Origin: Syntrophales bacterium
GTDB taxonomy: Bacteria; Desulfobacterota; Syntrophia; Syntrophales; Fen-1087
Length of the DNA stretch: 64,000 bases
NCBI GenBank assembly: GCA_034678725.1
Contig: JAXDBM010000049.1
Coordinates: forward strand, 10,878-74,877
Reading direction: 5' to 3'
Each line of letters begins with the position of its first letter. The first letter of the stretch is position 1. The notes below the pieces were generated by a model. That model was not told where the DNA came from, ran no database searches, and saw only the letters and a program-made list of their open reading frames with translations. Shown one piece after another: positions 17,793 to 61,124 of the stretch. The translations under genes and the position numbers were made by a program.

Positions 17793-17861
17793 AGGGGCGA
17801 AAAAGATAATCAATCAGGGTTCAGAAATCGAGTAGGTTTCTGGAGGACTTTCGATGGTCGG

Positions 17862-29819: not shown

Positions 29820-30003
29820 AATGGCCCCGACCGGCGTCTGATCGCCGGGTTGAATTCGACATCGAGCCCGCGGTTCCATAGCGGAAGCGGAACATTCCCG
29901 CGGCGCGGGGGTATTGCGGGCGGAAAAACCGCTGCGTGAAAATCCGGAACGTCTGTTTGCCCGCCGGAGCAACGCCTTTTCATCACACGAAGTGAACCGG
30001 ATC

Positions 30004-31173
30004 ATGTCTGAAGCGCTGATCTACTTTGACAATGCCGCCACCACCTTCCCGAAACCCGCGGTAACGATGGAGGCCATGGCGCGCTGCCTGCGCGAAGCGG
30101 GCGGCAGTCCGGGGCGTTCCGGCCACCGTCTTTCCATCGAGGCGGGACGGGTCCTGTTCAACGCGCGGGAAAGCCTGGCCGGGCTGTTCGGCATTTCCGA
30201 CTCGCTCCGGATCATTCTGACAAAAAATGCGACGGAAGCCCTGAATATTGCCATCTGCGGACTGCTGAAGCCGGGCGACCATGTCATCACGTCCGGCATG
30301 GAGCACAATTCGGTCATGCGGCCCCTGCGCGCCCTGGAGCCCGGGGGCGTGAATCTGACCGTGATCTCCTGCTCTCCCGCGGGGGAACTCGACCCTGCGG
30401 ATGTCGCCCGCGCCATCCGGAAGGACACCCGGGCTATCGTCCTGACCCACGCCTCCAATGTCACCGGAACCATCATGCCCGTCGCCGCCGTGGGCCGGAT
30501 CGCCCGGGAGCGGGGTGTCGTATTTTGCGTGGATGCTGCGCAGACCGCGGGCGCCCTTCCCATCGACGTTCAGGCCATGCAGATCGACCTGCTCGCATTC
30601 ACGGGGCACAAGTCCCTGTTCGGCCCGCAGGGAACGGGCGGGCTCTACATGCGGAAGGGCCTTGAAAAGGAGATCGCGCCCATCATGCGGGGAGGCACGG
30701 GAAGCCACTCCGAACTGGAGGAGCAGCCGGATTTCATGCCCGACTGCTACGAATCGGGCACCCCGAACACCGTCGGCATGGCCGGCCTGGATGCCGGGGC
30801 CGGTTTCGTCGCGAACCGGGGGGTCGAAAGCATTCGGGTCCATGAGGAAAGGCTGACCGGGCTCTTTCTGGCGGGTATCGAAAACATCGAAGGGGTAAGG
30901 GTGTACGGACTGAAGGACCCGTCCCGGCAGATGCCCGTCGTTTCGATCGGCATTCGCGGCTTGGACCCCGCGGCGGTCTCGATGGCGCTGGATGAACGTT
31001 TCGGGATCATGACGAGGCCGGGGCTGCACTGCGCCCCCGCGGCGCACAAAACGATCGAAACTTATCCCGCCGGGACGATCCGGTTCAGCTTCGGCTTTTT
31101 CAACACGGAGGAGCAGGTCGGCAGGGCGCTGGAGGCAATCCGCGAACTGGCCGGAAAGAGGATCAGGCCATGA
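30004..31173 (+). CDS. Cysteine desulfurase-family (class V) PLP enzyme
   Basis: ATG 30004. IYFDNAATTFPKP, the PLP lysine in FTGHKSLFGPQGTGGLY, and an active-site Cys in RPGLHCAPAAH. Confidence 0.85.
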   Translation: MSEALIYFDNAATTFPKPAVTMEAMARCLREAGGSPGRSGHRLSIEAGRVLFNARESLAGLFGISDSLRIILTKNATEALNIAICGLLKPGDHVITSGMEHNSVMRPLRALEPGGVNLTVISCSPAGELDPADVARAIRKDTRAIVLTHASNVTGTIMPVAAVGRIARERGVVFCVDAAQTAGALPIDVQAMQIDLLAFTGHKSLFGPQGTGGLYMRKGLEKEIAPIMRGGTGSHSELEEQPDFMPDCYESGTPNTVGMAGLDAGAGFVANRGVESIRVHEERLTGLFLAGIENIEGVRVYGLKDPSRQMPVVSIGIRGLDPAAVSMALDERFGIMTRPGLHCAPAAHKTIETYPAGTIRFSFGFFNTEEQVGRALEAIRELAGKRIRP

Positions 31174-31400
31174 CGCCGGGGGAGGGATTTCTCGTCGTTC
31201 TGTTCGTCTCGGTCAGCCATGCGCTGAAGGCGGAAAAGATTCTGAAGGGCGAAGGCATTCCCTTCAAGCTGATTCCCGTCCCCCGACACCTGAGTTCCGA
31301 CTGCGGTGTCTGCCTGCGGTTCCCGGCCGGTTTCCGGGAAAGGGTCCTTCACGCCCTTTCGGGAAAGGTCGAGATCGAAGGCATTCATTCCCTGGAATAG
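31170..31400 (+). CDS. DUF3343 (putative Se/S carrier-like) small protein
   Basis: ATGA overlap with the desulfurase gene. FLVVLFVSVSHALKAEKILKGEGIPFKLIPVPRHLSSDCGVCLRF matches the DUF3343 pattern, including its conserved Cys. Confidence 0.7.
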   Translation: MTPGEGFLVVLFVSVSHALKAEKILKGEGIPFKLIPVPRHLSSDCGVCLRFPAGFRERVLHALSGKVEIEGIHSLE

Positions 31401-40251: not shown

Positions 40252-40439
40252 TTATTCTTGGGATGACATGACCGGCCAGTTTGCACATTTATTGAAATTC
40301 GTCAATAGTTTGCTGAAAATGTTTCGGTAAAGTTGTATAGAACCTCGTCATGGGGATTGCGGAGCCGTTCCGCGGCCGGCCGATCGAAGGTTTTTCGGCT
40401 TTCCGGAAAAGAGACGACTGAAGGGGAGAAATATTCGAT

Positions 40440-41492
40440 ATGTCCGAAGCGAAAACGTTGCGCCTGACTGAAACGGTTCACGGTTCCGGCTGAGCCTGCA
40501 AAATCGGTCCGGAGGACCTGAACAAAGCGCTGCAGGCATTGCCGCCGATCTCGCACCCGAATCTCATCGTGGGCATGGAGCACGGGGAGGATGCCGGGGT
40601 CTACAAATTGTCCGATGACCTGGCCATCATCCAGACCGTGGATTTTTTCACCCCGATCGTCGACGATCCCTTCACCTTCGGACAGGTGGCGGCCGTCAAC
40701 GCCCTGTCCGATGTGTACGCCATGGGCGGCCGACCGCTCACGGCCATGAACATCATCTGCTTTCCCGTCAGAAAGATGGACCTCTCCATTCTGCAGCAGG
40801 TCCTTCTGGGCGGCCTGAACAAGATGCAGGAGGCCGGCGTTGTCCTTGTGGGCGGGCACAGTGTGGAGGACGACGAACTGAAGTATGGGCTGTCCGTGAC
40901 GGGTGTCATTCATCCCGACAGGGTACTGTTGAACCGGGGCGCCCGGCCCGGCGACCGGCTGATCCTCACGAAGCCGCTGGGGACCGGCATTGTGAGCACG
41001 GCCGTCAAGGGTGGGGTGGCCGACGACGCACTGCTGGCCGGCGCCGTTGCGTGCATGACGACGCTGAACCGGGCCGCGGCCGAACTGGTGGCGCAGACCC
41101 CCGGGATTCACGCCTGCACGGACATCACCGGGTTCGGACTGGTCGGGCACGCCGCTGAAATGATTGAAAACAGCGATGTTTCCATTCGGATCCGGACCGC
41201 GGACGTGCCCTTTTTCCCGGGCATCCGCGAGCTGGTGGAGAGCGGCATCGTCCCCGCGGGGCTGTACCGCAACCGGGATTTCCGTGCGGGCATCGTTGAT
41301 CCGGCCCCCGGATGTCCCTCGTGGCTGGTGGACATCCTTTTCGACCCGCAGACGGCCGGCGGGCTTTTCGTGGCCCTGGCGCCGGAGCGCGCGGACGAAC
41401 TCGTCCGAACGATGCGGTCCCGCGGCCTCGAGCAGGCCGCCGTCGTCGGGGAGGTTCTGGCCGAGCCGAAAGGCCGCATTCTGCTCGTTTGA
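40440..41492 (+). CDS. selD: Selenide, water dikinase (selenophosphate synthetase) with in-frame UGA (Sec) at codon 18
   Basis: ATG 40440 preceded by AAGGGGAG. Translation MSEAKTLRLTETVHGSG-U-ACKIGPEDL... with TGA at 40491..40493, at the position of the catalytic Cys/Sec in the SelD glycine-rich loop. It runs in frame into track ORF 40539..41492 (AIR-synthase-like fold). Confidence 0.9.
40494..40537 (+). promoter_or_regulatory. Candidate bacterial SECIS stem-loop directly 3' of the selD UGA
   Basis: Outer stem GCCUGCA (40494..40500) pairs with UGCAGGC (40531..40537). Inner hairpin GGUCC-GGA-GGACC (40506..40518). Confidence 0.6.
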
Positions 41493-41616: not shown

Positions 41617-42693
41617 ATGAAGCGCATTGAATCGATCCTCGTCAAAAAAGAGGAAACATCACTCAATGTTTTCAAACTGAAGGCCATGGTCAGGGGAAAA
41701 GAGGCGCCGGCCATCCTCATGTACGGCAGCCCCGATCCGGACGCCGTGGCGTCGGCGATGGCGCTGGAGGAGATTCTGCGCCGGACATCGGGGATTGCCC
41801 GGTGCACCCTGATCTCGACGGAGCCGGTGGCCCGCCAACAGAACCGGGAATTCATCCGGGCCATGCGTCTGGACATCGGGCTCCTGGACAAGAGCGACCT
41901 CGATTCGTTCGATCTCATCGCCCTTGTGGACGCCCAGCCCACGTTCTTCGGCCAGTCCCTGGAAAACATCCCCGTCCACCCCCAGATCGTCCTGGACCAC
42001 CACCCCGCCGCCGGCGTCTGGCACGCTGAACTGGCCGACATCCGGCCGAACTACGGCGCCCTGTCCACCGTCATGATGGAGTATTTGCTGACGGCGAAGG
42101 TCAGGATTCCGAGGAAGCTCTACACGGCGCTCTTGTACGGGATCAAGACGGACACCAACAACTTCGAGCGGGATTCCATTCTCGAAGACATCACTGCCTA
42201 TTACCTGGCCTATTCCCGCGCCAATCGCCAGCTCATCCGGCGCATCGAGCTGAATCAGATCCCCGAGAAGTATTTCAAGTATTTCGACTATGCCTTTCAT
42301 CACCGGCGCCGCTATCGCGACCGGGCCATGTGCTTTCTCGGCAAGGTGGAAAGCACCGACGCCTGCGTCCAAGTGGCCGATTTCTTCATCCGGATCGCGG
42401 AGATTTACTATGTCCTGATCGCCGGCATCGTCCGGGACCGTCTCGTCATCGTTTTGCGCGGGGACGGCTACCGTCAGGACTGCGGGGCCATCGCCATCAA
42501 GGCCTTCGGCGGCTACGGGAGCGCGGGGGGGCACAAGAGCGCGGCCCGTGTGGAGATACCGCTGGAGGCCCTGAAAGCGCCCCTGGATGAAGATTTTTCC
42601 CAGGAAAACGTGGAGCAGTTCATGATTCAGTGCCTTCGAAGGGCGCGGAAGCGGGCGCGCCCGTCCGAACCGCCCCCGGCGCAGAATTCCTGA
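41617..42693 (+). CDS. DHH/DHHA1-family phosphoesterase (NrnA-like)
   Basis: The DxD motif (GSPDPDAVAS), DHH motif (VLDHHP) and DHHA1 GGGH-type motif (GSAGGHKSAA). Confidence 0.8.
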   Translation: MKRIESILVKKEETSLNVFKLKAMVRGKEAPAILMYGSPDPDAVASAMALEEILRRTSGIARCTLISTEPVARQQNREFIRAMRLDIGLLDKSDLDSFDLIALVDAQPTFFGQSLENIPVHPQIVLDHHPAAGVWHAELADIRPNYGALSTVMMEYLLTAKVRIPRKLYTALLYGIKTDTNNFERDSILEDITAYYLAYSRANRQLIRRIELNQIPEKYFKYFDYAFHHRRRYRDRAMCFLGKVESTDACVQVADFFIRIAEIYYVLIAGIVRDRLVIVLRGDGYRQDCGAIAIKAFGGYGSAGGHKSAARVEIPLEALKAPLDEDFSQENVEQFMIQCLRRARKRARPSEPPPAQNS

Positions 42694-43811: not shown

Positions 43812-45248
43812 GTCAAGAGCAAATAGAGTTGTCCGGTTTTGTAGCACGTGAATTGTCCGCTTTTCTGTTCCGTGCGAAGGGCGACATTTTGGAACAGGAG
43901 GGGAGCGGCGGACGTGCGCTTCCTCAGACGATGAGGCGTTATCCACAACTCATCTCCCGCAGCCTATGTGGAGCGAGGCGGGAGGGGGCTGTGGGTAACG
44001 CCGTCAAGCCGCTTTTTTTATCTCTTTGAGCTTCCCCCGAGGATCATAATCAGCCAGCTTCCTGGGACCATGAAAGAGGGCTATTGACCCATCCAGATAC
44101 CGATGAACTTGGACCCTGACCCTGACGTAATGGCAGCGATATTGGTTTTCAGGGATTTGGAGTTTCTTCCCCTCGAAGCTGACGCAGTTGTCGGCGCTGA
44201 CCGTCCGCTCATCCTGTTCGCAGAGAATGTCATCCAGATGCTCTCCCAGCCAAGGAACAAACGCTGACCCGTCTTCAAGGGCCGGCTGCATGAACTCGGC
44301 GTTGAACGCGGGGAGATACTCCTTTGCCAAATAGCGGTTGGCGGCGTCCATGTCCGTGATCCCATGAAAAGCCAGCTCCTTGACAAGCCGGTCCTGGTGA
44401 GTCTCAAAAGCCCTTTCGCTACGTCCTCGCGCCTCCGGGGAGTAGGCCGCAATCATCTGAATCCCCAGGTGTTTCATCGCCCGGCCAAACTGGGTCAGCT
44501 GCGTCTTGCTGACCTTCCCCCCTTCCTTGGGTGTGTACCAGTAATGACTTCCACGGTCGGTGTACAAAGAACTGAACAACCCCTTTTGAACAATCACCTC
44601 CCGCACCCCCTGAAAACTGCTGCTCGTCCCTTCCTCGCCAACAAAGAACATCGAATAATGCTCACTCGTTGCGTCATCCATCGTCACGATTAGATCCCAC
44701 TGCTTCCCGGAAACCCATTCGTGTCTGCTGCCGTCTTGATGCAGCATCATACCGGGAAAGTGAGCCCGCTCTCTGCGCTTGCGATGAACTCCCCGCTTGG
44801 ATGACTTCATAACCAATCCCTTTGTCTGGAGCGTGTTCTTCACCCAGGTGTAACTGCGCCCACCCCCATCTCGCCGATACCACCTGTAAAAGTGCTTCAC
44901 ATTCCAGCCCCGGTGACCACGATGATACAGGTCCGTAACCGCCATCACCTCGTCCACAGGCGCACGACGAAATGAAGCCTGCCTCAAACGCTTGTCCGAC
45001 ACACCCGCTATCCCATCCTCCTCGTATCGATCAATGTATCGCCGAAACGTCCGATCGCTTACCCCCAAAACCAGAGCCGCCGTCGCCTGCGTCAACCGAC
45101 CCTCGTTCCATCCCAAATATACCTCCTCAAATCGCATCTTCCGGTTCTCCTCTAGCCACTCTGTCCGCCTCATCGGTCACCTCCCTAGGCAACCTTATCA
45201 AACCGGACAGATCATGTGCTATAAACCGGACATATCATTTGTTACTGA
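43812..45248 (-). mobile_element. Intact 1437-bp insertion sequence (DDE/rve transposase; IS1202/ISNCY-like, or IS481-like)
   Basis: Imperfect ~50-bp terminal inverted repeats: GTCAAGAGCAAATAGAGTTGTCCGGTTTTGTAGCAC... versus the reverse complement GTCAGTAACAAATGATATGTCCGGTTTATAGCAC... Each carries two TGTCCG(G/C)TTT motifs. One transposase ORF, flanked by an 18-bp direct repeat. Confidence 0.8.
44004..45173 (-). CDS. IS transposase (N-terminal HTH plus rve-type DDE integrase core)
   Basis: 389 aa. HTH region LTQATAALVLGVSDRTFRRYIDRY; DDE core blocks MLHQDGSRHEW, DLIVTMDDATS, LYTDRGSHY and SPEARGRSER. Confidence 0.85.
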   Translation of the reverse strand: MRRTEWLEENRKMRFEEVYLGWNEGRLTQATAALVLGVSDRTFRRYIDRYEEDGIAGVSDKRLRQASFRRAPVDEVMAVTDLYHRGHRGWNVKHFYRWYRRDGGGRSYTWVKNTLQTKGLVMKSSKRGVHRKRRERAHFPGMMLHQDGSRHEWVSGKQWDLIVTMDDATSEHYSMFFVGEEGTSSSFQGVREVIVQKGLFSSLYTDRGSHYWYTPKEGGKVSKTQLTQFGRAMKHLGIQMIAAYSPEARGRSERAFETHQDRLVKELAFHGITDMDAANRYLAKEYLPAFNAEFMQPALEDGSAFVPWLGEHLDDILCEQDERTVSADNCVSFEGKKLQIPENQYRCHYVRVRVQVHRYLDGSIALFHGPRKLADYDPRGKLKEIKKAA

Positions 45249-45266
45249 CAGCTTTTCCTGAATTGC
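45249..45266. repeat. Right copy of the 18-bp direct repeat (target-site duplication)
   Basis: AGCTTTTCCTGAATTGCT, immediately abutting the IS right inverted repeat. Confidence 0.75.
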
Positions 45267-45671: not shown

Positions 45672-47102
45672 ATGCTCATTCAGCCCTTTTTTGTTTCCGG
45701 ACTGGCCCATTGCTCGTACCTGCTCGCCGGGTCGAAAAGCTGCGCCGTCATCGATCCGAGGCGGGACGTCCGGGTGTATCTGGATGCGGCGAATTCGCTG
45801 GGCGTCCGGATCACGCACATCCTCGAAACCCACCTTCACGCGGATTTTGTCTCCGGTCACATGGACCTGGCCGAAAAGACCGGGGCCGCGATCTATGCCC
45901 CCCGCTCCGCCGGGTGCGCCTTCGCGCACACGGGTTTGGCAGACGGCGATGTGTTCCATATCGAAGACATGGATGTCCTGGTTCTGGAGACGCCCGGCCA
46001 CACACCGGAGCACATCGTTTACGTCGTCGCGGACCGGTCAAGGGGCGAAGATCCGGTGGCCCTCTTCAGCGGCGACACCCTCTTCGTGGGTGATGTGGGA
46101 AGGCCGGACCTGTTTCCGGGGATCGCGGAGAAACTGGCGGGGGAACTGCACGACAGCCTCTACCGGAAACTGATGGGCCTGCCCGATTTCTGCGAGGTCT
46201 ATCCCGCGCACGGGGCCGGCTCCCTCTGCGGAAGAGAGATATCGGCAAAGCGCACGTCCACCATCGGATATGAAAAGCGGCACAACTACGCGCTGCAAAT
46301 CCCGGACCGGAAGGAGTTCATTCGGCGGCTGACGACCGGGATGCCCGCGGCCCCGGACCACTTCAGCCGCTGCAGCGAGACCAACCGGAAGGGACCTGCC
46401 CGGCTTAAAAGCCTTTCCGCCGCCGTGCCCCTCGATCCCCTATCCTTTTCACGCAGGGCCGAGGGCGCCGGTGTGGCCGTGCTCGATATCCGGCCCTATG
46501 ATGCGTACGGCGGCTTGCATGTCATGGGATCTTTTCACATCGATCTGACCAGCAACTTCAGCACCTTCGCCGGATGGATCCTTCCGCCCGAAGCCGACAT
46601 CCTGCTGGTCGCCGATCACCGGGACCAGGTTGAAAGGGCCTCGGTTCTTCTCAGACGGGTGGGGCTCGACCGGGTGACGGGCTTTCTGGAAGGGGGCTCG
46701 TTTGCCTGGGCCGCCTCCGGATTTCCCCTGGGTCATGTTCCCCAGCTTTCCGTTCAGGATCTGAACGAAAGGATCTGCAGCGGCGAATCGGCCGTCCTTC
46801 TGGACGTGCGAACCGTCGGCGAATTCGAGGGGGGCCATATCGAGGGCGCCATCCATATTCCGGTTCCCGACCTCAGGACCCGACATGGGGAACTGGACCC
46901 GGAGGCGTCGATCGTCGCCATCTGCAACGTGGGACAGCGGGGGACGCTTGCGGCAAGCCTTCTCAAGCAGCGCGGTTTTCAGCGCGTCTCCAATCTGGCC
47001 GGCGGCATGACGGCTTACAATGCCGCCACAGGAGGCGCCGAATGTCCGGTCTGCGCGCTTCCCCACGGACCGGCGCTGTCCGCAGGATCGGGTGGGAGGT
47101 GA
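45672..47102 (+). CDS. MBL-fold hydrolase (persulfide-dioxygenase-like) fused to two rhodanese domains
   Basis: THLHADFVSGH metal motif and HTPEH. C-terminal rhodanese with active-site loop CNVGQRG. AGGAGG lies 6 nt upstream of the ATG. Confidence 0.85.
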   Translation: MLIQPFFVSGLAHCSYLLAGSKSCAVIDPRRDVRVYLDAANSLGVRITHILETHLHADFVSGHMDLAEKTGAAIYAPRSAGCAFAHTGLADGDVFHIEDMDVLVLETPGHTPEHIVYVVADRSRGEDPVALFSGDTLFVGDVGRPDLFPGIAEKLAGELHDSLYRKLMGLPDFCEVYPAHGAGSLCGREISAKRTSTIGYEKRHNYALQIPDRKEFIRRLTTGMPAAPDHFSRCSETNRKGPARLKSLSAAVPLDPLSFSRRAEGAGVAVLDIRPYDAYGGLHVMGSFHIDLTSNFSTFAGWILPPEADILLVADHRDQVERASVLLRRVGLDRVTGFLEGGSFAWAASGFPLGHVPQLSVQDLNERICSGESAVLLDVRTVGEFEGGHIEGAIHIPVPDLRTRHGELDPEASIVAICNVGQRGTLAASLLKQRGFQRVSNLAGGMTAYNAATGGAECPVCALPHGPALSAGSGGR

Positions 47103-47127
47103 GGATCACAGCGTGGAATGGCTCATC

Positions 47128-47634
47128 ATGGAAAGGTGGTCGCCTTACGCGGCGGGGGTCGGAATCGGGATACTGAGCTGGCTGACCTTTCTGCTGTCGG
47201 ACCGGGCCCTCGGCTGCTCCACCGCCTTCGCCCGGACCAGCGGGATGATCGAAAGGCTCTTCCGCGGGGCCAAGGTCCTCGAAAAGCCCTATTACCGGAA
47301 ATTCGTCCCGGAGATCGACTGGGAATGGATGCTGGTCCTCGGGATGTTCTTCGGCGCCCTCGCCTCCTCGGTCCTGTCCGGCCAGTTTCAGATCCAGTGG
47401 GTTCCGGAAAGATGGATGGCGGCTTTCGGCGGTTCGTTCCCCCTTCGCTGGCTGGCCTCGATGGCCGGAGGATTTCTGCTGGGGTTCGGCGCCCGCTGGG
47501 CGGGAGGCTGCACCAGCGGCCACGGGATCAGCGGCACCCTGCAACTGGCCGTCGGCAGCTGGATCGCGACCCTCTGCTTCTTTGTCGGCGGCGTTGTGAC
47601 GGCCCGGCTGATTTTTCAATATTTTCCGAAGTGA
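47128..47634 (+). CDS. YeeE/YedE-family sulfur (or selenium) transport protein, half-size
   Basis: Conserved GARWAGGCTSGHGISG motif and four hydrophobic segments. GTG 47113 is an alternative start, 10 nt after GGGAGGTGAGG. Confidence 0.8.
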   Translation: MERWSPYAAGVGIGILSWLTFLLSDRALGCSTAFARTSGMIERLFRGAKVLEKPYYRKFVPEIDWEWMLVLGMFFGALASSVLSGQFQIQWVPERWMAAFGGSFPLRWLASMAGGFLLGFGARWAGGCTSGHGISGTLQLAVGSWIATLCFFVGGVVTARLIFQYFPK

Positions 47635-47639
47635 CGCGG

Positions 47640-48200
47640 ATGATGCCGGGCAGCCTGCACGAAAACAGAAAAATTCAACTGGTCATCGGTTTTGCGGCCG
47701 GTTTCTTTTTCGGATTCCTGCTCCAGAAGGGAGGGGTCACCCGCTACGACGTCATCATCGGCCAGCTCCTTCTGAGGGACTTCACGATGGTCAAGGTCAT
47801 GCTCTCCGCCGTGGTCACCGGCATGATCGGCGTGCACCTGCTGCGCAGTCTCGGCCTGGCTGCCCTGCACCCGAAGGCCGGTTCCTTCGGGTCGGTCGTT
47901 CCCGGAGGCCTGATCTTCGGGGCGGGATTCGGCCTGCTGGGCTATTGCCCCGGGACCCTGGCCGGCGCCGCGGGTCAGGGGAGCCTGGACGCCCTGCTTG
48001 GAGGGATGGCGGGCGTCCTGATCGGCGCGGGGGTCTTTGCGCAATTCTACCCGAAGCTGGAGCGGGCAATTATCGGAAGGGGTGATTTCGGTGAGATGAC
48101 CATGCCGCAGTTGCTCCGGGTGAATCCCTGGCGGGTGATTCCGGGGGTCGCGATCGCCATCGTCGCCCTGCTGGTCTGGATGGAAAAATCGGGCTTCTGA
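47640..48200 (+). CDS. YeeE/YedE-family transport protein, second half-size paralogue
   Basis: ATG 47640, in frame within track ORF 47118..48200. GFGLLGYCPGT conserved-Cys motif; hydrophobic. Confidence 0.8.
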   Translation: MMPGSLHENRKIQLVIGFAAGFFFGFLLQKGGVTRYDVIIGQLLLRDFTMVKVMLSAVVTGMIGVHLLRSLGLAALHPKAGSFGSVVPGGLIFGAGFGLLGYCPGTLAGAAGQGSLDALLGGMAGVLIGAGVFAQFYPKLERAIIGRGDFGEMTMPQLLRVNPWRVIPGVAIAIVALLVWMEKSGF

Positions 48201-49495: not shown

Positions 49496-50275
49496 TTAGA
49501 AACCGATGGAAATTCCAACAAAAGGCCCGTTGCAATCCACATCCGCGTAAATGTCGCTGATGTCGTCCAGTTCGAGCTTCATGACGCGATAACCCGCGTG
49601 AATGTCGAGAAAAGGGAAGGGGGTCACGGAAATCTCCGCCGAGGCGTCGTAGAACTGGTTGCCGGAGTAGCCGGTCCAGGCGCCGTTCACGCGGGCCTCC
49701 AGGATGTTGGCGATCAGCCCGATATGCAGTCCCGCCCCGACCATGGGAAGAACGGCGGTGAACGTCCGTTTCTGCTCGCCCAGTTCCGCGGAGGACATCC
49801 TCGTTTCGCCGTCGATGTACCGCACCCTTCCCAGCAGCCCGAAGGAGAAGCCTCCCAGAGCGTTCTCCAGGTTGACAAGGTCGTACCGGTACTCCCCGTC
49901 GAACATGTTTATTTTGAAGCTGGAATCGACGACGGAATTCGTTTGATAGGCTTGGCCGTTGAAGGTGATGGGCCGGCTGATGCTCGCGCTCGCCGAATAA
50001 TCCAGCGGCGTGTACATGACGCTGAAGTGATGGTTTCCGCCTCCGGCATAGACTTCCACGGAATAGGTCAGCTCATCGTCGAGCCCCAGATCGTCTTTCA
50101 GGTCTACATTGTCGCCTTTTATTCCGTCTTTGTCCGCACGCATCGTGCCCTCGATTTTGGGCATCCACAGAAATCCCCGCGCGCCGAATTCCACGGCGCC
50201 GGCGCTTGCCGACAGCATGGTCACGATCAGAAATCCGGCAAGCGCGGCCAGAACCACCCCGTGCTTTTTTTTCAT
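49496..50275 (-). CDS. Outer-membrane beta-barrel protein (259 aa)
   Basis: ATG 50275. Signal peptide MKKKHGVVLAALAGFLIVTMLSASAGA, alternating strands, and C-terminal ...VGISIGF. Confidence 0.7.
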   Translation of the reverse strand: MKKKHGVVLAALAGFLIVTMLSASAGAVEFGARGFLWMPKIEGTMRADKDGIKGDNVDLKDDLGLDDELTYSVEVYAGGGNHHFSVMYTPLDYSASASISRPITFNGQAYQTNSVVDSSFKINMFDGEYRYDLVNLENALGGFSFGLLGRVRYIDGETRMSSAELGEQKRTFTAVLPMVGAGLHIGLIANILEARVNGAWTGYSGNQFYDASAEISVTPFPFLDIHAGYRVMKLELDDISDIYADVDCNGPFVGISIGF

Positions 50276-50403
50276 GAAACCTCCTGAAAACGCCCGCATC
50301 CGCGCATCCGCGCATTTTTTAGAATCCGCGGCAACATCGCAAATAATCCCGTCCAGTGCAAGCGAAAATGCATTCCCGTTCCCGCCATGCCCGGCGCTGA
50401 ATT

Positions 50404-51459
50404 TCAGAGGGGGCCCTTCTTGTCCCGGTGGATCGCGAGGGCGTTCCGGATCAGGGCGGAGATGATCATCCCGGGCAGGAGGCCGGCGCTGGCAGCCTGC
50501 TCGAAGAAAAAGGAGGAGGGTGCCATGCCGGATGAAGAGTTGGGGTCGGTGATCAGGATCCGGCCGTCCTTCAGGCAGAATCCGTCAATGCGGCCGTAGG
50601 AGCGGAATCCAAGGGCATGGTAGGCCCGAAGCACGGATTCCCGGATTCGATCCGCCGTTTCGCGGGGGATGTTTTTCGGCGGCGTGAATTTGCGGCATCG
50701 TCCGGGCATGTACTTGTCGTCATAGGTGTAGTAGGCGCTCTGCGGGTAGATTTCCGTCAGTTCCAGCACCCGGGCCTCTCCATCGTCCTCCAGGACGATG
50801 GCGGAAAATTCGATGCCGTCGAGATACTCCTCCACCAGGGCGGCGTTGTCCCATTGGAGGGCGGCGTCGATGCCCGCCGCGAGGCCGGCCGGATCGTCCA
50901 CACGGGTGACGCCGACGCTCGATCCTTCGCGGGTCGGTTTCGTGAAGAAGGGGAAGGAAAACCGCTCCAGGATCTCCTTTTGGACGGCCTCCCGCCTTTC
51001 CCGCCAGTCCCATGCGGTAACGACCATGCTGCGCGGCACATCGATTCCCTCCGACATCAGGACTTTCTGCTGGAGATGCTTGTCCATGCCGAGGGCGGAT
51101 GCCAGGACGCCGGGGCCGGTGTAGGGGATGTTCAGGAGTTCGAGCAGCCCCTGGATGCAGCCGTCGTCCCCGTACTTTCCGTGCAGGGAGATGAAGGCGA
51201 AATCGATTTCCCTTTTCAGGTCCTCGTAGGCGATCCGGCGGGCCTCCCCTTCGAGGTGGTCGGAGATGTCCAGGGTCGTGTTCTGGGAGATGAGCTGCCA
51301 CGGAATGACCCACAGCCTCCCCTCGGCGTCCATGAAGATGGGAACGGCCCCATACAGCTCGGGGTCGAGGTTGTCGTGAACGTTCCTTCCGCTGTTGAGG
51401 GAGACCTCACGTTCCGAAGACATCCCCCCCAGAATGATCCCGATGCGCAGTTTTTTCAT
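50404..51459 (-). CDS. ddl: D-alanine--D-alanine ligase (paralogue 2; canonical omega-loop Lys-Tyr)
   Basis: ATG 51459. IILGGMSSEREVSLNSG and LHGKYGDDGCIQGLLELLNIPYTGPG. The omega-loop YYTYDDKYMPG resembles E. coli DdlB FYDYEAKY. Confidence 0.9.
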   Translation of the reverse strand: MKKLRIGIILGGMSSEREVSLNSGRNVHDNLDPELYGAVPIFMDAEGRLWVIPWQLISQNTTLDISDHLEGEARRIAYEDLKREIDFAFISLHGKYGDDGCIQGLLELLNIPYTGPGVLASALGMDKHLQQKVLMSEGIDVPRSMVVTAWDWRERREAVQKEILERFSFPFFTKPTREGSSVGVTRVDDPAGLAAGIDAALQWDNAALVEEYLDGIEFSAIVLEDDGEARVLELTEIYPQSAYYTYDDKYMPGRCRKFTPPKNIPRETADRIRESVLRAYHALGFRSYGRIDGFCLKDGRILITDPNSSSGMAPSSFFFEQAASAGLLPGMIISALIRNALAIHRDKKGPL

Positions 51460-51734
51460 CGTCTCTTCCCGGAGTCGCGCCGCCGCGGGCATCGCGCCCG
51501 GATCGCGTCCGGTCGGCTGCACGTTCGGCTGAGGCGCCCCTTCCAATTATTTTTTTACGGTTCGTGCCGCATTTCATACTTTACAACGGCTTTACCGTCG
51601 AGGAAATGTTTTGCCGTATATCACAGTCGGCGGGCGGTGGGAAGACCGTGCAAGTAGGGCGGGCCGGAGACGGCCTGAAGGTCCGGGCCGCGGCCGGCGG
51701 ACCGTCGAACGCATGACCGGTGACGGGGCTGCGG

Positions 51735-53720
51735 CTACGCCCAGATAAATGTGACGCCGCTGGTGGGAAAGATCCACTCGTCGTCGCTGATCCGGAGTGT
51801 GATGGACCGGTCCTTCACTCGGGTGATCACCGGTGAGGGGTTCCTCCCGGCGAAGAAGCTGATCTCCCGGACATTCCGGACGCGCGCCCCCTCGTAGTTG
51901 AAGCGGATGTCCAGCCCCCGCGTGGGGTAGACCAGATAAACGGAGAACAGGTTGTTGCGCTTCGATTTCTTGGTCACGATTTCGATTGCAATCCTGGCCT
52001 GGCGGTTGACTTTTTTCTTCAGATCCTCGCCGCCGCACCAGACCTCGTAGCCCCGGTCCGTGATTTCCGTCCGAATGATGGGGACCGGATCATCGTCGAT
52101 ACAGACGCGGCTCACCCGGAAATCCTTTTCCGTGATCGCCTCGTCGCGTTGGCCGAGCAGCCAGCGGTACTCGCACCGCTTATCGTCGAACAGCGAGGCG
52201 AGCTGCTCGTTATTCATGGCGCAGCCGATCATGAAGACGGGATGGCTGAGGGCCTTGGTGTATTCGATGCGCGTGGTGACCTTGAAATCATCTCCGGACG
52301 GGCGATCGGAGGCCATTTCCGCCTCCGTGAATTCCTCGATGTGGATGTCGTAGCGGAAGTTCGTCCGCAGCTCGAGCTGCCGGTCCTCCTTGCCGAACAG
52401 GGTTTCGAACATCTCGTAGTAGATGGCGTCGCCCAGCTCCTCGCTGCGCGCCCGGGTCTGGAGGCAATGCCGGAGGATGTTGTCGATGCGGGCAAGGGAT
52501 TTTTCCTCGTCGGGGATGAAGACCCTCCGGAGGCGGGGAGCCACGGTGTCCGTTTTGCCCTTCTGCAGGAAGACCCGCGGCGCCCGCTTGCCCAGGGCGC
52601 ACAGGATCTCGTAGCTGATGGTCCGGATGCGGTTCGCGATCTCGTTGGCGGTGATCGCTTCGCTTCCCTGCCGGCCGAGGATCACCACCTCGTCCCCCAC
52701 TTGGCAGTCCTGAATGTGGCTGACATTGACGGTGCACATGTCCATGGAAACCCGCCCGACGATGGCGGCCCGCTTTCCCTGAATGAGCACCTCGCCCTGG
52801 TTCGACAGGAGCACGTCGTAGCCGTCCCCGTAGCCGACGGGGATCGTCGCGATCCGGGTGGGCTTGTGGGTCATATAGGTCCGGTTGTAGCCGATGCTGT
52901 AGCCTTCCGGAAACTCTTTGATGAGCACGATCCGGGTCTTGAAGCTCATGACCGGGGCGAGGCTCGCCTTTCCTGCGGTGTCGGGCGAGGGGTAGATGCC
53001 GTAGGACATGATGCCCGGCCGGACCATGTCCAGGTGGAACCCGGGGTAATTGAGGATGCCCCCGCTGTTGCACATGTGCCGGACGGGAATCCGGACCCGG
53101 TGGGCCGCCAGCTTGTCCAGCAGATCCTTGAACAGGCGCCACTGCCGGTCGTTGTACTCGATCATCACCTCGCTGGCCGCCAGGTGGGTGAAGATCCCCT
53201 CGACAACGACGTTCGGAAATGCGAGGATTTCCCGGATCATGTCGAAGGCCTCGTAATGGATGGTGCCGCCGCGGCCCATCCCGGTGTCCACCTCGATGTG
53301 TATGGGGGCCTTGATCCCCGCCTTGCGGAACTGCCTCTGCAGCTCCCGGGCAAAACAGATGTCGGAGACCGACGGTGTCAGGTTGTACTTGATGATCTGG
53401 CCGATTTCGTAATCCGGCGAGGGGCTGAGGATGACGATGGGTGCGCTGATGTCGCTGACCCGGAGCTGAACGCCCTCATCCGCGTTGGCGACGCCGAGGC
53501 AGGCCGCGCCGTTTTTCAGCGCCACATTGGCGATTTCCATCGCGCCGTGCCCGTAGGCGTCGGCCTTCACCACCTGCATGATGCGCACGGCAGGGCCCAC
53601 GAGCCGCTTCATCTCATTCCAGTTTTGGGTGAAGTGATCGAGGTCGACTTCCACCCAGCTTCTGTACCGCTGTTCCTCTTTCAACGCCATGTCCCCTGTC
53701 CCCGGGCCGCTTCCACACAT
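51735..53720 (-). CDS. alr: Alanine racemase fused to a ~276-aa C-terminal domain of unknown function
   Basis: The PLP-lysine block VVKADAYGHG and the Alr fold to about aa 385 (..ISYEILCALGKRAPRVF). A further 276 aa have no motif I recognise. ATG 53690 is an alternative start. Confidence 0.85.
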   Translation of the reverse strand: MCGSGPGTGDMALKEEQRYRSWVEVDLDHFTQNWNEMKRLVGPAVRIMQVVKADAYGHGAMEIANVALKNGAACLGVANADEGVQLRVSDISAPIVILSPSPDYEIGQIIKYNLTPSVSDICFARELQRQFRKAGIKAPIHIEVDTGMGRGGTIHYEAFDMIREILAFPNVVVEGIFTHLAASEVMIEYNDRQWRLFKDLLDKLAAHRVRIPVRHMCNSGGILNYPGFHLDMVRPGIMSYGIYPSPDTAGKASLAPVMSFKTRIVLIKEFPEGYSIGYNRTYMTHKPTRIATIPVGYGDGYDVLLSNQGEVLIQGKRAAIVGRVSMDMCTVNVSHIQDCQVGDEVVILGRQGSEAITANEIANRIRTISYEILCALGKRAPRVFLQKGKTDTVAPRLRRVFIPDEEKSLARIDNILRHCLQTRARSEELGDAIYYEMFETLFGKEDRQLELRTNFRYDIHIEEFTEAEMASDRPSGDDFKVTTRIEYTKALSHPVFMIGCAMNNEQLASLFDDKRCEYRWLLGQRDEAITEKDFRVSRVCIDDDPVPIIRTEITDRGYEVWCGGEDLKKKVNRQARIAIEIVTKKSKRNNLFSVYLVYPTRGLDIRFNYEGARVRNVREISFFAGRNPSPVITRVKDRSITLRISDDEWIFPTSGVTFIWA

Positions 53721-53984
53721 CCTTCCTGAAACCGCGACGTGCGAATCATACCAGAGGCTTCGGTGTTGTCAAGGCAAAGCTCGGACTTGGTTTGTGGAAA
53801 CAGCCATTGGAAATTTTCCATTATCCGTCCGATCGTCGCTGTCGAACACCTGCTTCGACCGCCCTCTCTGGCTCCGCTCGCGCTCCGCCGATCAAGGCCG
53901 TTCGAGCAGACCCCGCCCCAAGGGGCTGTAACGATCCATCGTTCGCATAAAGAGAGAAAAATCCTTGCTGCTATGACGTTATGG

Positions 53985-54002
53985 TGTTATAGATACATAA
54001 CA
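53985..54002. promoter_or_regulatory. Inverted repeat upstream of the TA operon (candidate antitoxin operator)
   Basis: TGTTAT-N6-ATAACA, 18 nt upstream of ATG 54020. Confidence 0.35.
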
Positions 54003-54019
54003 ACATGGGGGGTGATAAT

Positions 54020-54253
54020 ATGAAATCAGCAGCAACACGCGCCACCGTATACCTGGACCCGGAATTACATAAAGCTCTTCGCTTAAAGGCAGTTGAAACA
54101 TCACAGTCTCTATCGAAATTAGTGAATGATGCCATCAAAGAATCTCTGGCGGAAGACGCTGAAGACATTGCAGCTTTTGGGGAAAGAGTTAAAGAGCCCT
54201 TAATCAGTTACGAAACAATGATCAAGAGGCTGAAAATCGATGGCAAAATATGA
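54020..54253 (+). CDS. Ribbon-helix-helix (CopG/RelB-like) type II antitoxin
   Basis: ATG 54020 preceded by GGGGGTGA. RATVYLDPELHKALRLKAVETSQSLSKLVNDAIKESL is an RHH pattern. It overlaps the toxin gene by 14 nt. Confidence 0.75.
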   Translation: MKSAATRATVYLDPELHKALRLKAVETSQSLSKLVNDAIKESLAEDAEDIAAFGERVKEPLISYETMIKRLKIDGKI

Positions 54254-54497
54254 AATCTATTTCAAACAATCCGTCGAAAAAGACTTCCGTGCGATACCCA
54301 AAAAAGATTTAAGGAAGATTATCCATTGCATTGAGGCGCTTTCTAAAGATCCGAGACCCCCAGGCCATGAAAAACTAACAGGGCAAGAGAGATACCGTGT
54401 TCGACAAGGGCGGTACAGGATTATCTATTCCGTTCAGGAGAAAGAGCTTACAATTTGGATCGTGAAGGTGGGGCATCGAAGAGATGTTTATCGCTGA
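54240..54497 (+). CDS. relE: RelE/ParE-family type II toxin
   Basis: YRVRQGRYRIIYSVQEKELTIWIVKVGHRRDVY, the typical RelE/StbE C-terminal signature. Confidence 0.85.
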   Translation: MAKYEIYFKQSVEKDFRAIPKKDLRKIIHCIEALSKDPRPPGHEKLTGQERYRVRQGRYRIIYSVQEKELTIWIVKVGHRRDVYR

Positions 54498-54515
54498 AGC
54501 GAACATGTCAATCCT

Positions 54516-54546
54516 CGCGACCGCATGTAGCGGCGCGTGATTTTTT
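54516..54546 (+). terminator. Intrinsic terminator after the TA pair
   Basis: CGCGACCGC-ATGTA-GCGGCGCG hairpin (8 bp with one bulged A), followed by TGATTTTTT. Confidence 0.55.
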
Positions 54547-54811
54547 CGCTAAATGACTGCCCGGGCGATGCTCTGCCGTTTACAAGAAATCCGTGCTGTC
54601 CCGGTGTGAAGCACTCTTCCCGGTGCGAACGGGATTACCCACCTTTACCCTTCATTTTACAATGCTGTTCTGATCCGCGGAAATCTTTCCTGTAAAATAT
54701 TCATCAATCATTACAAAAACATGAGATTCATTTCCCTGCCGGATGGCCCTTTTGGCACGATTCCTGATTGCAACCGACGCCGAAAAGACTTTTCACAAGG
54801 GAGGCATGCAG

Positions 54812-55762
54812 ATGACGGCTTCAAGAAACAGGGTGGCCGCGGTCTTTCCGGGGCAGGGCGCCCAGCGGCCTGGCATGGGGCGGGACTTCCATGACCGCGC
54901 CGCCGTCTGCCGGGAGACCTACGAGGAGGCATCGGATGCGCTGGGTTGGGACGTTGCCGCCATGTGCTTCGGGAACGACGAGCGGCTGGACCGAACGGAG
55001 TACACGCAGCCCTGCCTGCTGACGACGGAACTGGCAATGTTCCGGGGACTTTGCGAGCTGCATGGGATTCATCCGTCCCTTTACGGGGGTCACAGCCTCG
55101 GCGAGTTTACCGCCCTGGTCGCGGCCGGCGTCATTCCCCTTTCCGATGCCGTCCGGATCGTGCAGTCGCGGGGCAGGCTGATGCAGGAGGCGGCCCCGGC
55201 CGGCCTGGGCGGAATGGCGGCGGTGATTGCCGACGCGCTGGATGCCGACGACCTCGATCACGCCCTGTCCGATCTTCCCGTCGATATCGCGAATGTCAAC
55301 TCGCCGAAGCAGATCGTTCTCAGCGGGGCCGCGGAGGCCCTGTCCGAGGCGGCGGTCCGGATCGTCGATGTCCTGGAGGAAGGCAGGCCCTTCCGCTTCG
55401 TTCCCCTCAATGTCAGCGCCCCCTTTCACAGCCGGTTCATGCGCTGTGTGGAGGGCGAATTTTCAAGGATCCTCCAGTCCCTGAGCGAACGGATGGACGC
55501 GAAAAAAGCCGTCGCGGTCACTTCCAATTTCACCGGCGGATTCCACGAAACGAACCCGGATGATCTGCTGAGCGCCCTCACCTGCCAGATCGGGAGCCGG
55601 GTCCGCTGGGTGGACAACATGGAAGCCATCGCCGCGGAGGCCGATCGGATCTACGAAATCGGCCCGGCCCGGCCGCTCCGGGAATTTTTCAAATCGATCG
55701 ATGTCCACTGCCTGTCCGTGACGACGCTTTCCTCGGCGTCCCGGCTGTTCGGGAGCAATTGA
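54812..55762 (+). CDS. fabD: Malonyl-CoA:ACP transacylase
   Basis: AAVFPGQGAQRPGMG and active-site GHSLGEFTALVAAG. ATG 54812 lies 7 nt after AAGGGAGG; ATG 54806 is an alternative. Confidence 0.9.
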   Translation: MTASRNRVAAVFPGQGAQRPGMGRDFHDRAAVCRETYEEASDALGWDVAAMCFGNDERLDRTEYTQPCLLTTELAMFRGLCELHGIHPSLYGGHSLGEFTALVAAGVIPLSDAVRIVQSRGRLMQEAAPAGLGGMAAVIADALDADDLDHALSDLPVDIANVNSPKQIVLSGAAEALSEAAVRIVDVLEEGRPFRFVPLNVSAPFHSRFMRCVEGEFSRILQSLSERMDAKKAVAVTSNFTGGFHETNPDDLLSALTCQIGSRVRWVDNMEAIAAEADRIYEIGPARPLREFFKSIDVHCLSVTTLSSASRLFGSN

Positions 55763-55765
55763 GAC

Positions 55766-56965
55766 ATGGACTTCCATCTGAACGATCAGCAGCAGATGTA
55801 TGTGGACACGGTCCGCCGCTTCGTCCGGACGGAGATCCTGCCGCAGGTCATGGACATGGAACGGAAACACGTTTTCCCCATGCAGATCATCCGCAAGGCC
55901 TGGGAGACGGGCATCCTCAATCTCAGCATTCCGGACGCGATCAAGGAGTACGAGATCGACGCCGTATCGTCCGCGCTGATCATCATGGAGCTTTCCTACG
56001 GCGATTCGGGGATCGCCACGTCGGCCATGTGCAACGATCTCGCCAACGTGATCATCGCCCGTCATGGGAGCGCCGCACAACAGGAGCGGTTCCTCCGCCC
56101 CTTCGTCGAAAGGCCGCTGTTGGCTTCCTTCTGCCTGACCGAACCGGGTGCAGGCTCCGACAACGGCGCCATGATCTCCTGCATGAGCAAGCAGGCGGAC
56201 GGCTCGTACCGGCTCAACGGAACGAAATGCTTCATCACCAATGCCTCCTACGCATCCCAGTTCACGGTCTTCTGCAAGGTGGGAAAGCCGGGCAGTTCGC
56301 TGATGGCCTGCGTCGTCGTTCCCGCCGGGTCCGTTTCCCCGGAAGATATGCAGGGCGATGGAGAAGGGATCCGGGAGATCGACATCGCGGCGGGCGGGAA
56401 AATCGTCGTCGCGAAGGCGGAGGACAAGCTCGGGCAGCGCCTGTCCAACACGGCCGGTGTCACCTTCGAGGACGTGGTGATTGCCCCCGACCAGATCATC
56501 GGGGACCGGCGTCTGGGATTCCGCTACATCGTCGATGTCCTCGACTACGCCCGGCCCATGGTGGCGGCGATCGGCGTCGGGCTGGCGAGGCGCGCGCTGG
56601 ATGTCACGCTGGCCTACACCCGGGAGCGCCGCCAATTCAGCCAGCGCATCTGCGACCTTCCAGTGGCGCGGGAATCGCTGGTGGCCATGTGGAAAAAAGT
56701 GGAAATGGCGGAGATGGCCCTGCTGAAGTCCGCCTGGAAACTCCAGACGGGGGCGCCGGACGGCGGCCTCTACGCCTCGCTGGCGAAAAATGCCGCAGCG
56801 GAGGCGTCCCTCTTCTGCGCGAACGAGGGGCTCCACCTCCACGGCGGCTACGGATTCATGTCGGAATACGAGATTTCGAAGCTGGTCCGGGACGCCCATA
56901 TCCTCGACATCTACGAGGGCGTCCGGGAGGTCCAGAACATGATCATCGGCCGGGAGCTGGTCTGA
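55766..56965 (+). CDS. Acyl-CoA dehydrogenase-family flavoenzyme (possibly acting on acyl-ACP)
   Basis: ACAD fold: CLTEPGAGSD, FITNA and the C-terminal catalytic-Glu block DIYEGVREVQ. It starts 3 nt after the fabD stop, and its stop overlaps the fabH start (TGATG). Confidence 0.9.
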   Translation: MDFHLNDQQQMYVDTVRRFVRTEILPQVMDMERKHVFPMQIIRKAWETGILNLSIPDAIKEYEIDAVSSALIIMELSYGDSGIATSAMCNDLANVIIARHGSAAQQERFLRPFVERPLLASFCLTEPGAGSDNGAMISCMSKQADGSYRLNGTKCFITNASYASQFTVFCKVGKPGSSLMACVVVPAGSVSPEDMQGDGEGIREIDIAAGGKIVVAKAEDKLGQRLSNTAGVTFEDVVIAPDQIIGDRRLGFRYIVDVLDYARPMVAAIGVGLARRALDVTLAYTRERRQFSQRICDLPVARESLVAMWKKVEMAEMALLKSAWKLQTGAPDGGLYASLAKNAAAEASLFCANEGLHLHGGYGFMSEYEISKLVRDAHILDIYEGVREVQNMIIGRELV

Positions 56966-57954
56966 TGGCGCTTTACCTGCACGGTCTGGGTCACTTCCAC
57001 CCGGAGAACGTGATCTCCAACCGTTTCCTCGAGGAGCTGGACATCGGCACGACCCAGGAGTGGATCATGGAGCGGGTCGGCATTCAGGAGCGCCGCACGG
57101 CCCTTTCCCTGGACTATATTCAGGCGACGCGGAACCGCGATCCGCGGGCGGCGCTGGAGGCGAGCAGCCATACGAACGCGCGGATCGGCGCGGCGGCGGC
57201 CCGAATGGCCTTGGATCGGGCGGGGCTCGGTCCGGAGGACATCGGCCTCGTCGTTTCCGGAAGCTCGGCCCCGGACCACGTCACGCCCGCCGAGGCGGCG
57301 GTGGTGGCGGCGGAACTGGACATCGAAGCGCCCTGTTTCGACATGAATGCCGCCTGCGCCACCTTTGGCGTGCAGATGCATTTTCTGAGCGGAATGCGGC
57401 CGGAAGCGCTTCCGCCTTACGTCCTGGTGGTCAACCCGGAGAGCCTCACCCGCTGCGTCGATTATTCGGACCGGAACACGGCTGTGCTCTTCGGGGACGG
57501 CGGCACGGCGGCCGTCGTCTCGGCGGCCGTGCCGTCGCGCATTCATGTTCAGGACTGCCGTTGCGATGCCCGGCCGTCGGCCTGGCGGAAGGCGTCGATT
57601 CCCCGTACCGGCTATTTCCGGCAGGAGGGGAACGCCGTCCAGGGGTTTGCAATCCGCCGCATGACGGACACCGTCCGAATGCTTCAGGATTCCCACGGCC
57701 GCAACGGCCATCGCTTTCTCTTCGCCGGACACCAGGCGAACCTGGGAATCCTGCAGACGGTCTGCGCGCGGACGGGAATCGCGGAGGATCACCACTGGCA
57801 CAATGTGGTCCGCTTCGGCAACGCCGGCTGCTCGGGCGCGCCTGCGGCCGTGAGCCAGCGCTGGGGCGATCTGAAGCCGGGCGACCGTCTGGCCATGGCT
57901 TTCGTGGGCGCGGGGCTGAGCTGGGCGTCTCTGATGCTGGTAGTCGAGGAATGA
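56965..57954 (+). CDS. fabH: 3-oxoacyl-ACP synthase III (FabH-like)
   Basis: These are the last 329 codons of track ORF 55759..57954. Cys-His-Asn triad contexts DMNAACATFG, GHQANLGI and FGNAGCSG. Confidence 0.85.
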   Translation: MALYLHGLGHFHPENVISNRFLEELDIGTTQEWIMERVGIQERRTALSLDYIQATRNRDPRAALEASSHTNARIGAAAARMALDRAGLGPEDIGLVVSGSSAPDHVTPAEAAVVAAELDIEAPCFDMNAACATFGVQMHFLSGMRPEALPPYVLVVNPESLTRCVDYSDRNTAVLFGDGGTAAVVSAAVPSRIHVQDCRCDARPSAWRKASIPRTGYFRQEGNAVQGFAIRRMTDTVRMLQDSHGRNGHRFLFAGHQANLGILQTVCARTGIAEDHHWHNVVRFGNAGCSGAPAAVSQRWGDLKPGDRLAMAFVGAGLSWASLMLVVEE

Positions 57955-57996
57955 CGGAAAGATATCGATGATACGCATTTTGCGGGGATGTGAAGC

Positions 57997-58602: not shown

Positions 58603-58613
58603 AGGGGGAAGCG

Positions 58614-61094: not shown

Positions 61095-61124
61095 AAGCGC
61101 AAACAAAATCAAAGGAGTTTTCAT

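Follow-up and report, generated by a model that had tools for sequence, protein, structure and literature searches.

Does a TGA triplet near the 5′ end of a gene for selenophosphate synthetase (selD; selenide, water dikinase) terminate translation, or is it decoded as selenocysteine (Sec)? The question is raised by a stretch of 64,000 nucleotides from a Syntrophales bacterium (contig JAXDBM010000049.1; the whole stretch is referred to below as the window), in which a mechanical list of open reading frames (ORFs) begins selD at TTG 40539 and yields a product of 317 amino acids (aa). A first-pass annotation of the same DNA, which had noted this start correctly, proposed instead that the gene opens at an upstream ATG and runs through an in-frame TGA followed by a hairpin resembling a selenocysteine insertion sequence (SECIS). 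The analysis presented here indicates that positions 40440-41492 are almost certainly one selD gene, whose codon 18, UGA, is recoded to selenocysteine.

Reading frame and identity of the gene

The elements of the coding frame, as read from the sequence and its translation, are the following:

40421..40428, forward strand: Shine-Dalgarno-like sequence AAGGGGAG, 11 nt upstream of the ATG
40440-40442, forward strand: start codon ATG
40440..41492, forward strand: full selD coding sequence (CDS), 350 codons including Sec18
40491..40493, forward strand: in-frame UGA (TGA), codon 18, the sole interruption of the 350-codon frame
41490..41492, forward strand: genuine selD stop, likewise TGA

Translation from 40440 gives MSEAKTLRLTETVHGSG, the stop symbol and ACKIGPEDL, after which the frame remains open until the TGA at 41490-41492; a stop at 40419-40421 in the same frame makes ATG 40440 its first start, and the motif GGGGAG is kept at an equal distance from the start in the closest relative (L005). 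The start, the ribosome-binding site, the frame, the N-terminal peptide and the position of the TGA, all of which had been proposed in the first-pass annotation, proved correct upon re-reading and translation. An alignment of the 5′ leaders also contains a palindrome, TTTCCGGAAA, that is common only to the closest relative. Since TGA is the usual stop of the window, where it ends 27 of the 39 genes checked, selD among them, the UGA at codon 18 must be recoded locally and not reassigned genome-wide.

For the profile and structure searches Cys was substituted at residue 18. The resulting protein scores 396.4 bits against the NCBIfam model TIGR00476 (selD; cut-off 125) and 356.3 bits against NF002098 (cut-off 299), and displays in Pfam the PurM-like two-domain architecture, with PF00586 (AIRS) at residues 49-157 and PF02769 (AIRS_C) at residues 169-347. 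Its best solved relative is E. coli SelD (3U0O; E = 2.5e-78 over residues 5-348), followed by SelD of Aquifex aeolicus (2YYE; E = 4.5e-69). With Cys at codon 18 the gene is thus, as judged from these matches, unambiguously a selD, as had been claimed at first pass, and its product is predicted to synthesize selenophosphate from selenide and ATP.

In the 3U0O alignment the segment HGSG-U18-A-C20-K21 matches HGAG-C17-G-C19-K20 of E. coli column for column, which places the UGA at the catalytic Cys/Sec position, exactly where the first-pass annotation had put it. The two proteins share the N-terminal loop H-G-x-G-[C/U]-x-C-K and differ in that E. coli SelD has Cys17, encoded by TGC, and no SECIS hairpin, whereas the selD of the window has UGA at residue 18. 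Likewise, the sequence SSG-C-AAKVGPGDL of A. aeolicus SelD (2YYE/2ZOD/2ZAU), which belongs to a different phylum, aligns with GSG-U-ACKIGPEDL of the window; the native Aquifex enzyme is a selenoprotein, reportedly crystallised as its Sec-to-Cys variant. The Gly-rich loop motif with residue 18, Cys20 and Lys21 is invariant in 78 relatives. Furthermore, Asp51, Asp68, Asn87 and Asp91 occupy identical positions in E. coli SelD, and presumably have the roles assigned to them in structural work on that enzyme.

How the gene has been called elsewhere is consistent with the mechanical list of the window. The 317-aa product is also the public metagenome gene call on 12 contigs of this species, and 119 of the best 120 SelD homologues in a collection of 5.8 billion proteins lack part of the N-terminus (305-329 aa, covering 86-94 % of the query), even in entries that NCBI names SelD. 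The N-terminal truncation of SelD in this clade is systematic, and the warning that stop-based ORF calling is unreliable here was well founded.

The one full-length protein among these 120 homologues, P0011, is 70 % identical to the SelD of the window and carries Cys at the Sec position:

L087 840-1892 (JGI metagenome contig Ga0598241_0006094): Cys-type SelD P0011, TGC codon, hairpin GGTCCGGGCGACC kept

This gene looks like the outcome of a recent Sec-to-Cys conversion in which the SECIS element has been retained as a “fossil”.

Conservation of the UGA and of the frame on both its sides

A single scan of 185,579 species-representative genomes yielded 80 selD loci. Almost all of them carry the label Syntrophales, Syntrophaceae, Smithella or Syntrophus, and one belongs to the complete genome of Syntrophus buswellii DM-2 (L025). 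Their SelD proteins are 62-91 % identical to that of the window and, in most of the 80 loci, the tblastn match spans residues 1-350, i.e., it runs across the TGA. A TGA occupies the homologous codon in all 80 loci (78/78 distinct sequences), and 12 metagenome contigs of this species, each assembled independently, have the identical TGA. Moreover, in codons 8-17, upstream of the TGA, and 19-34, downstream of it, the amino acids are kept while the third positions vary freely, with entropies of 1.6-1.9 bits at Arg8, Leu9, Thr10, Thr12, Val13, Gly15 and Gly17. The 15 codons that separate the TGA from TTG 40539 (ACKIGPEDLNKALQA) behave in the same way, their protein sequence being conserved in all relatives in spite of synonymous variation. 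Amino acids kept on both sides of the TGA together with third positions that vary synonymously indicate that both sides are translated in one frame. The first-pass annotation had agreed to give up its proposal should the region 40440-40538 lack conservation in orthologues; this region is conserved in 80/80 loci.

The pattern of conservation around the TGA rules out both a pseudogene or assembly error and the combination of a leader peptide with a truncated enzyme. In the latter case the TGA would be a real stop, ending a 17-residue leader, and a separate, truncated SelD would begin at TTG 40539, or at a GTG or ATG further on, as in the mechanical ORF call and in the database entries of 119 of the best 120 homologues. 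Such an arrangement is very improbable, because the protein-level conservation of the 15 intervening codons extends to Cys20 and Lys21, which are aligned with Cys19 and Lys20 of E. coli, because the starts called in the orthologues differ (305, 315, 317, 320 or 329 aa), as expected if the first available start is picked arbitrarily, and because no purine-rich ribosome-binding site precedes 40539. In addition, judging from E. coli SelD, a protein deprived of the Gly-rich loop would lose the catalytic Cys/Sec and Lys.

As to the possibility that the gene is a pseudogene, or that its TGA is an assembly or sequencing error for TGC or TGT, its probability is vanishingly small. Indeed, L087, whose product P0011 is 70 % identical, has TGC at this position, so that the two states are one mutation apart; yet the same TGA recurs in the 12 independent contigs of the species and in 80/80 genomes of different Syntrophales species, and purifying selection acts on the remainder of the gene, which is intact. 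The comparative data have effectively refuted this explanation, and the reading of 40440-41492 as a single, Sec-encoding selD gene is retained in what follows.

The hairpin downstream of the UGA

Immediately 3′ of the UGA, and within the CDS, the RNA can form a hairpin that comprises three parts:

40506..40518, forward strand: core hairpin GGUCCGGAGGACC of the bacterial SECIS (bSECIS) type, GGUC (40506-40509) paired with GACC (40515-40518), apical loop CGGAG (or GGA)
40504..40521, forward strand: extended upper stem UC (40504-40505) / GA (40520-40521) across the bulged U40519, present in the minimum-free-energy (MFE) structures
40494..40537, forward strand: lineage-specific lower stem GCCUGCA (40494-40500) / UGCAGGC (40531-40537), which encloses the core in the MFE fold

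The hairpin begins 12 nt downstream of the UGA, and the two-tier structure is the MFE fold both of a 61-nt segment (-24.5 kcal/mol) and of the UGA plus 48 nt (-17.6 kcal/mol). The stability of this fold is only modestly better than that of shuffled sequences (z = -1.98; 6/200 shuffles equally stable), but the hairpin is beyond chance because the TGA is present in 80/80 orthologous loci and the core is frozen at synonymous sites.

The latter property emerges from two data sets, i.e., an alignment of the hairpin (A1) in 69 distinct relatives and a codon analysis of 78 distinct sequences. The RNAalifold consensus of the 69 relatives consists of a single helix, GGUC/GACC, with the loop CGGNN. The pairs of this helix are unchanged in 67-69 of the 69 relatives, the only changes being three of G-C to G-U, and the loop residues G30 and G31 (A1 numbering) are invariant (69/69). 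A fifth pair, C40510-G40514, is found in 25/69 relatives, and the UC/GA extension is weakly supported, only 56 % of its cells in the relatives being standard pairs. At the level of codons, the 82 conserved four-fold-degenerate codons of selD have a median third-position entropy of 1.63 bits, and only two of them display zero synonymous change, namely Gly23 (GGT in 78/78) and Pro24 (CCG in 78/78), which together read GGUCCG; Asp26 is GAC in 77/78 sequences, compared with a ratio of 58:20 at Asp51. The freezing of the codons for Gly23, Pro24 and Asp26 implies that GGUCCGG..GACC is under selection at the RNA level, beyond what the protein needs.

The first-pass annotation had described a two-tier stem-loop, and both tiers do occur in the MFE fold of the window; only the inner GGUC/GACC tier is conserved, whereas the outer one is not. 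In fact, two of the seven outer pairs, 13-56 and 15-54, are broken in 60/69 and 54/69 relatives, respectively; the lower stem is retained in L005 and partly in L006, and in many other lineages GCCUG is paired with CAGGC located ~7 nt closer in. Furthermore, the enclosing stems of the relatives are not significantly better than those formed with shuffled 3′ tails (mean z = -0.7; 6.9 vs 6.1 enclosing pairs). From these comparisons the two-tier shape would seem to be specific to the lineage of this species and not a defining part of the element, and there is a smaller possibility that the species-specific 7-bp lower stem tunes the efficiency of Sec insertion. A search of the window for more copies of GGTCCGGNNGACC gave 5 matches vs 3.55 expected; the one other exact match, at 58626-58638 on the reverse strand, runs antisense to a FabG-like gene, lacks a TGA upstream of it and is attributed to chance.

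That bacterial SECIS elements occur in Sec-containing SelD genes is documented (PMC4561486), and the bSECISearch consensus of Zhang and Gladyshev (2005) provides a model with which the hairpin can be compared. In the part of a 2026 review that summarises this consensus (PMC13188914), the model has a stem of 4-16 bp capped by an apical loop of 3-9 nt, with a G within the first two loop positions, typically in the context N1-G-[G/U]-N-N2, a distance of 16-37 nt between UGA and loop, and an MFE not exceeding -7.5 kcal/mol. The selD hairpin falls within all four constraints as given there, so that its description as SECIS-like was apt. Its stem has 4 bp with the 5-nt loop CGGAG or, alternatively, 5 bp with the 3-nt loop GGA; the loop C-G-G-A-G fits N1-G-G-N-N2, its flanking C and G (N1-N2) being able to pair; the spacing between UGA and loop is 16 nt if the stem is read as 4 bp and 17 nt if it is read as 5 bp; and the limit on MFE is passed with the -17.6 kcal/mol of the UGA plus 48 nt, as it is in 67/69 relatives. 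The UGA that precedes the hairpin is the one aligned with Cys in E. coli SelD and in P0011. In stem length and in distance from the UGA alike, the element is close to the lower limit of the bSECIS model.

Several results weigh against a Sec-encoding UGA. The spacing of 16-17 nt lies at the lower edge of the range of the model, and the 18-nt mini-hairpin alone, at -7.2 kcal/mol, just misses the limit of -7.5 kcal/mol, so that the flanking pairs are needed. RNAalifold detects no compensatory covariation in the short (4 bp), invariant stem conserved in the 69 relatives. Searches in Rfam, of the whole window at gathering thresholds and of 40420-40600 at E values up to 10, returned no SECIS or related family but only matches at chance level; Rfam is uninformative for this hairpin. 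Finally, as to the machinery, neither selA nor selB nor the gene of tRNA-Sec (selC) is found in the 64 kb of the window or in the 10 kb adjoining it at each end, and a tRNA scan found no tRNA-Sec beside selD in 60 relatives. The Sec machinery of the organism is thus assumed.

The lack of this machinery in the places searched would suit a readthrough of the UGA in which no Sec is inserted, a near-cognate tRNA introducing Trp or Cys, or Cys-tRNA(Sec) serving as donor, while the hairpin acts as a general stimulator only. A hairpin-stimulated, Sec-independent readthrough has been proposed for the UGA-containing SPS1 of insects (PMC4561486), and a minor non-Sec decoding may conceivably start the synthesis of SelD when the protein is absent. 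As an explanation of the conserved UGA, such a readthrough nevertheless has very little likelihood, since the loop sequence and the spacing of the hairpin fit the SelB-type bSECIS model, since Trp would be of no use at the position concerned, which is the catalytic Cys/Sec site, since the same organism possesses a second gene, of a classic selenoprotein family (MvhD/FrhD-type), with UGA at a Cys position, and since the selenoprotein list of the cultured relative Syntrophus aciditrophicus has 19 entries, SelD and four FrhD among them (Zhang, Romero and Gladyshev, PMC1794560 Table 3).

The second gene came to light on contig MVQT01000104.1 (L089) of the metagenome-assembled genome (MAG) GCA_002067595.1, which is 99.965 % identical to positions 49814-64000 of the window and was reached through the look-up of a FabF-like gene:

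L089 17762-18199, i.e., ~67575-68012 in window numbering and ~3.6 kb beyond the end of the window: MvhD/FlpD (hydrogenase delta subunit-like) gene

It has been called as two adjacent fragments of 72 and 60 aa which, read as one frame, give 145 residues with an in-frame TGA (L089 17978-17980) at a conserved Cys position in the motif GVLVSG-U-HPGECHY. The joined frame matches the whole of the Pfam model FlpD, TGA included, at 172.7 bits, and 23 nt after the UGA begins a bSECIS-like hairpin whose apical loop is GUCU. The gene lies after a 1475-aa HdrA-like gene, which starts at position 63103 of the window, and before HdrB/C-like genes. These features point to a probable second selenoprotein gene of the organism, and indirectly support its capacity for Sec decoding. 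The detection of split selenoprotein genes relied on split gene calls that share one Pfam family; scanning mechanically for ORFs bridged by TGA returned 197 candidates in DNA of 60 % G+C, and was too unspecific to be of use.

By analogy with E. coli fdhF, the sequence of events at the selD UGA may be pictured as follows. The hairpin GGUC-CGGAG-GACC, 12 nt downstream of the UGA, would expose GG in its apical loop, to which SelB, with GTP and Sec-tRNA(Sec), would bind. When the ribosome reaches the UGA, the tethered complex would bring Sec-tRNA(Sec) into the A site, competing there with release factor 2 (RF2), and translation would proceed through the Gly-rich catalytic loop G-S-G-U18-A-C20-K21. 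The product of SelD, selenophosphate, would in turn be the selenium donor with which SelA forms Sec-tRNA(Sec). Since SelD makes the donor needed for its own Sec, its synthesis would be selenium-dependent and self-reinforcing, i.e., subject to a positive feedback, whereas without selenium translation would halt and the 17-residue peptide would be released.

The bSECIS of fdhF is likewise a stem-loop located in the CDS just 3′ of the UGA, with a G followed by G/U opening a small loop, and the distance from UGA to upper stem is 11 nt, as against 12 nt in the selD of the window. The two elements have no sequence similarity beyond the loop G-G/U, and the conserved stem of the window is minimal (4-5 bp). 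As to the protein, few bacterial selenoprotein families are as widespread as SelD (PMC9312934), and the Sec-containing SelD of S. aciditrophicus was catalogued as early as 2006 (PMC1794560 Table 3), in keeping with the remark of the first-pass annotation that Sec-containing SelD is not new biology. The Sec-SelD of S. aciditrophicus and other Deltaproteobacteria belongs to the same protein family, that of S. aciditrophicus also to the same order, and has its UGA at the same catalytic residue; the 80 Syntrophales loci, that of S. buswellii DM-2 among them, have in common with the window both the TGA and the core of the hairpin. There is, in other words, no difference of substance from the Syntrophus SelD, the present case being that of an uncultured species whose lower stem is longer and specific to it, and whose SelD is ~90 % identical to that of the nearest species-representative MAGs, L005 and L006.

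Neighbouring genes and meaning of the finding

The surroundings of selD contain several genes that might have to do with selenium or sulfur:

29914-31400, forward strand, ~9 kb upstream of selD: EF2568-type cysteine desulfurase (SclA-like) and 76-aa PF11823 “Se/S carrier”
41617-42693, forward strand, directly downstream of selD: divergent DHH/DHHA1-like phosphoesterase (28.8 bits against Pfam DHH, slightly over its cut-off)
45672-48200, forward strand, ~4 kb downstream of selD: metallo-beta-lactamase-rhodanese fusion (476 aa) and two YeeE/YedE/TsuA-like half-transporters

A DHH gene, with 55-91 % identity, lies immediately 3′ of selD in 22/80 Syntrophales loci; in L087 the start of the DHH gene overlaps the stop codon of selD. 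The DHH neighbour has no match in NCBIfam and no sequence relative in the PDB, and a literature search for a link between SelD and DHH proteins returned nothing relevant. The desulfurase scores 469.7 bits against TIGR01977, above the cut-off, and 407 bits against the model of the selenocysteine lyase SclA, below the cut-off of the latter; its gene overlaps by 4 nt that of the carrier, which has an SDCGVC motif and which, in the metagenome variant L004, bears an in-frame deletion of ~126 bp. Desulfurase and carrier are likely to form a pair for the delivery of selenium or sulfur. The half-size membrane proteins encoded at 47113-47634 and 47631-48200 have weak matches to the thiosulfate transporter TsuA and to YedE/FdhT of selenium metabolism, and the genes at 45672-48200 are a putative sulfur or selenium uptake module near selD. 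That the DHH gene, the SclA-like desulfurase with its carrier and the metallo-beta-lactamase-rhodanese protein with its transporters constitute, together with selD, a wider selenium-handling neighbourhood that includes an uncharacterised partner is unlikely; if it were the case, selenophosphate metabolism might have a new accessory in the DHH protein.

Other features of the window are:

17817-17871, forward strand: nhaA-I riboswitch (Rfam RF03057, 49.2 bits vs a gathering score of 37)
43812-45249: 1.44-kb ISNCY insertion, transposase gene at 44004-45173 on the reverse strand (NF033594, 345 bits)
54743-62188, forward strand: fatty-acid-synthase-like cluster

The riboswitch is located just after the gene of a P-type cation ATPase (~14921-17635) and before only two tiny ORFs (57 and 36 aa), a downstream context that is unusual for this type of cation riboswitch. 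The ISNCY insertion is flanked by an 18-bp direct repeat, is absent from the otherwise 99.9 %-identical contigs L001-L003 and interrupts the region in this strain only; the short-read contigs L004, scaffold_254 and MVQT01000104.1 end at or in it. The cluster at 54743-62188 contains genes for an acyltransferase, an acyl-CoA dehydrogenase, a KAS III, two FabA-like dehydratases (one of them with ApeP/ApeI-like matches), a ketoreductase, a KAS I/II, a small ORF of the size of an acyl carrier protein (ACP) and a further acyltransferase, and resembles an aryl-polyene or specialised-lipid locus. The reverse-strand ORF 56911-58785 gave no matches upon look-up and is not a real gene.

What, then, does the finding mean? 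The analysis confirms a Sec-encoding selD with its SECIS hairpin as real, routinely mis-annotated and belonging to a biology already known; what is known of selenocysteine decoding is left unchanged, and the value of the finding is that of a correction of the annotation. The correct selD product has 350 residues with Sec at position 18, as opposed to the stored fragments of 305-329 residues, and in this organism, as in Syntrophales generally, genes for selenoproteins may be split or truncated by any stop-based gene call, MvhD/FlpD representing a second example. The finding also marks the organism as a user of selenium, in which the Sec pathway would depend on what it itself produces.

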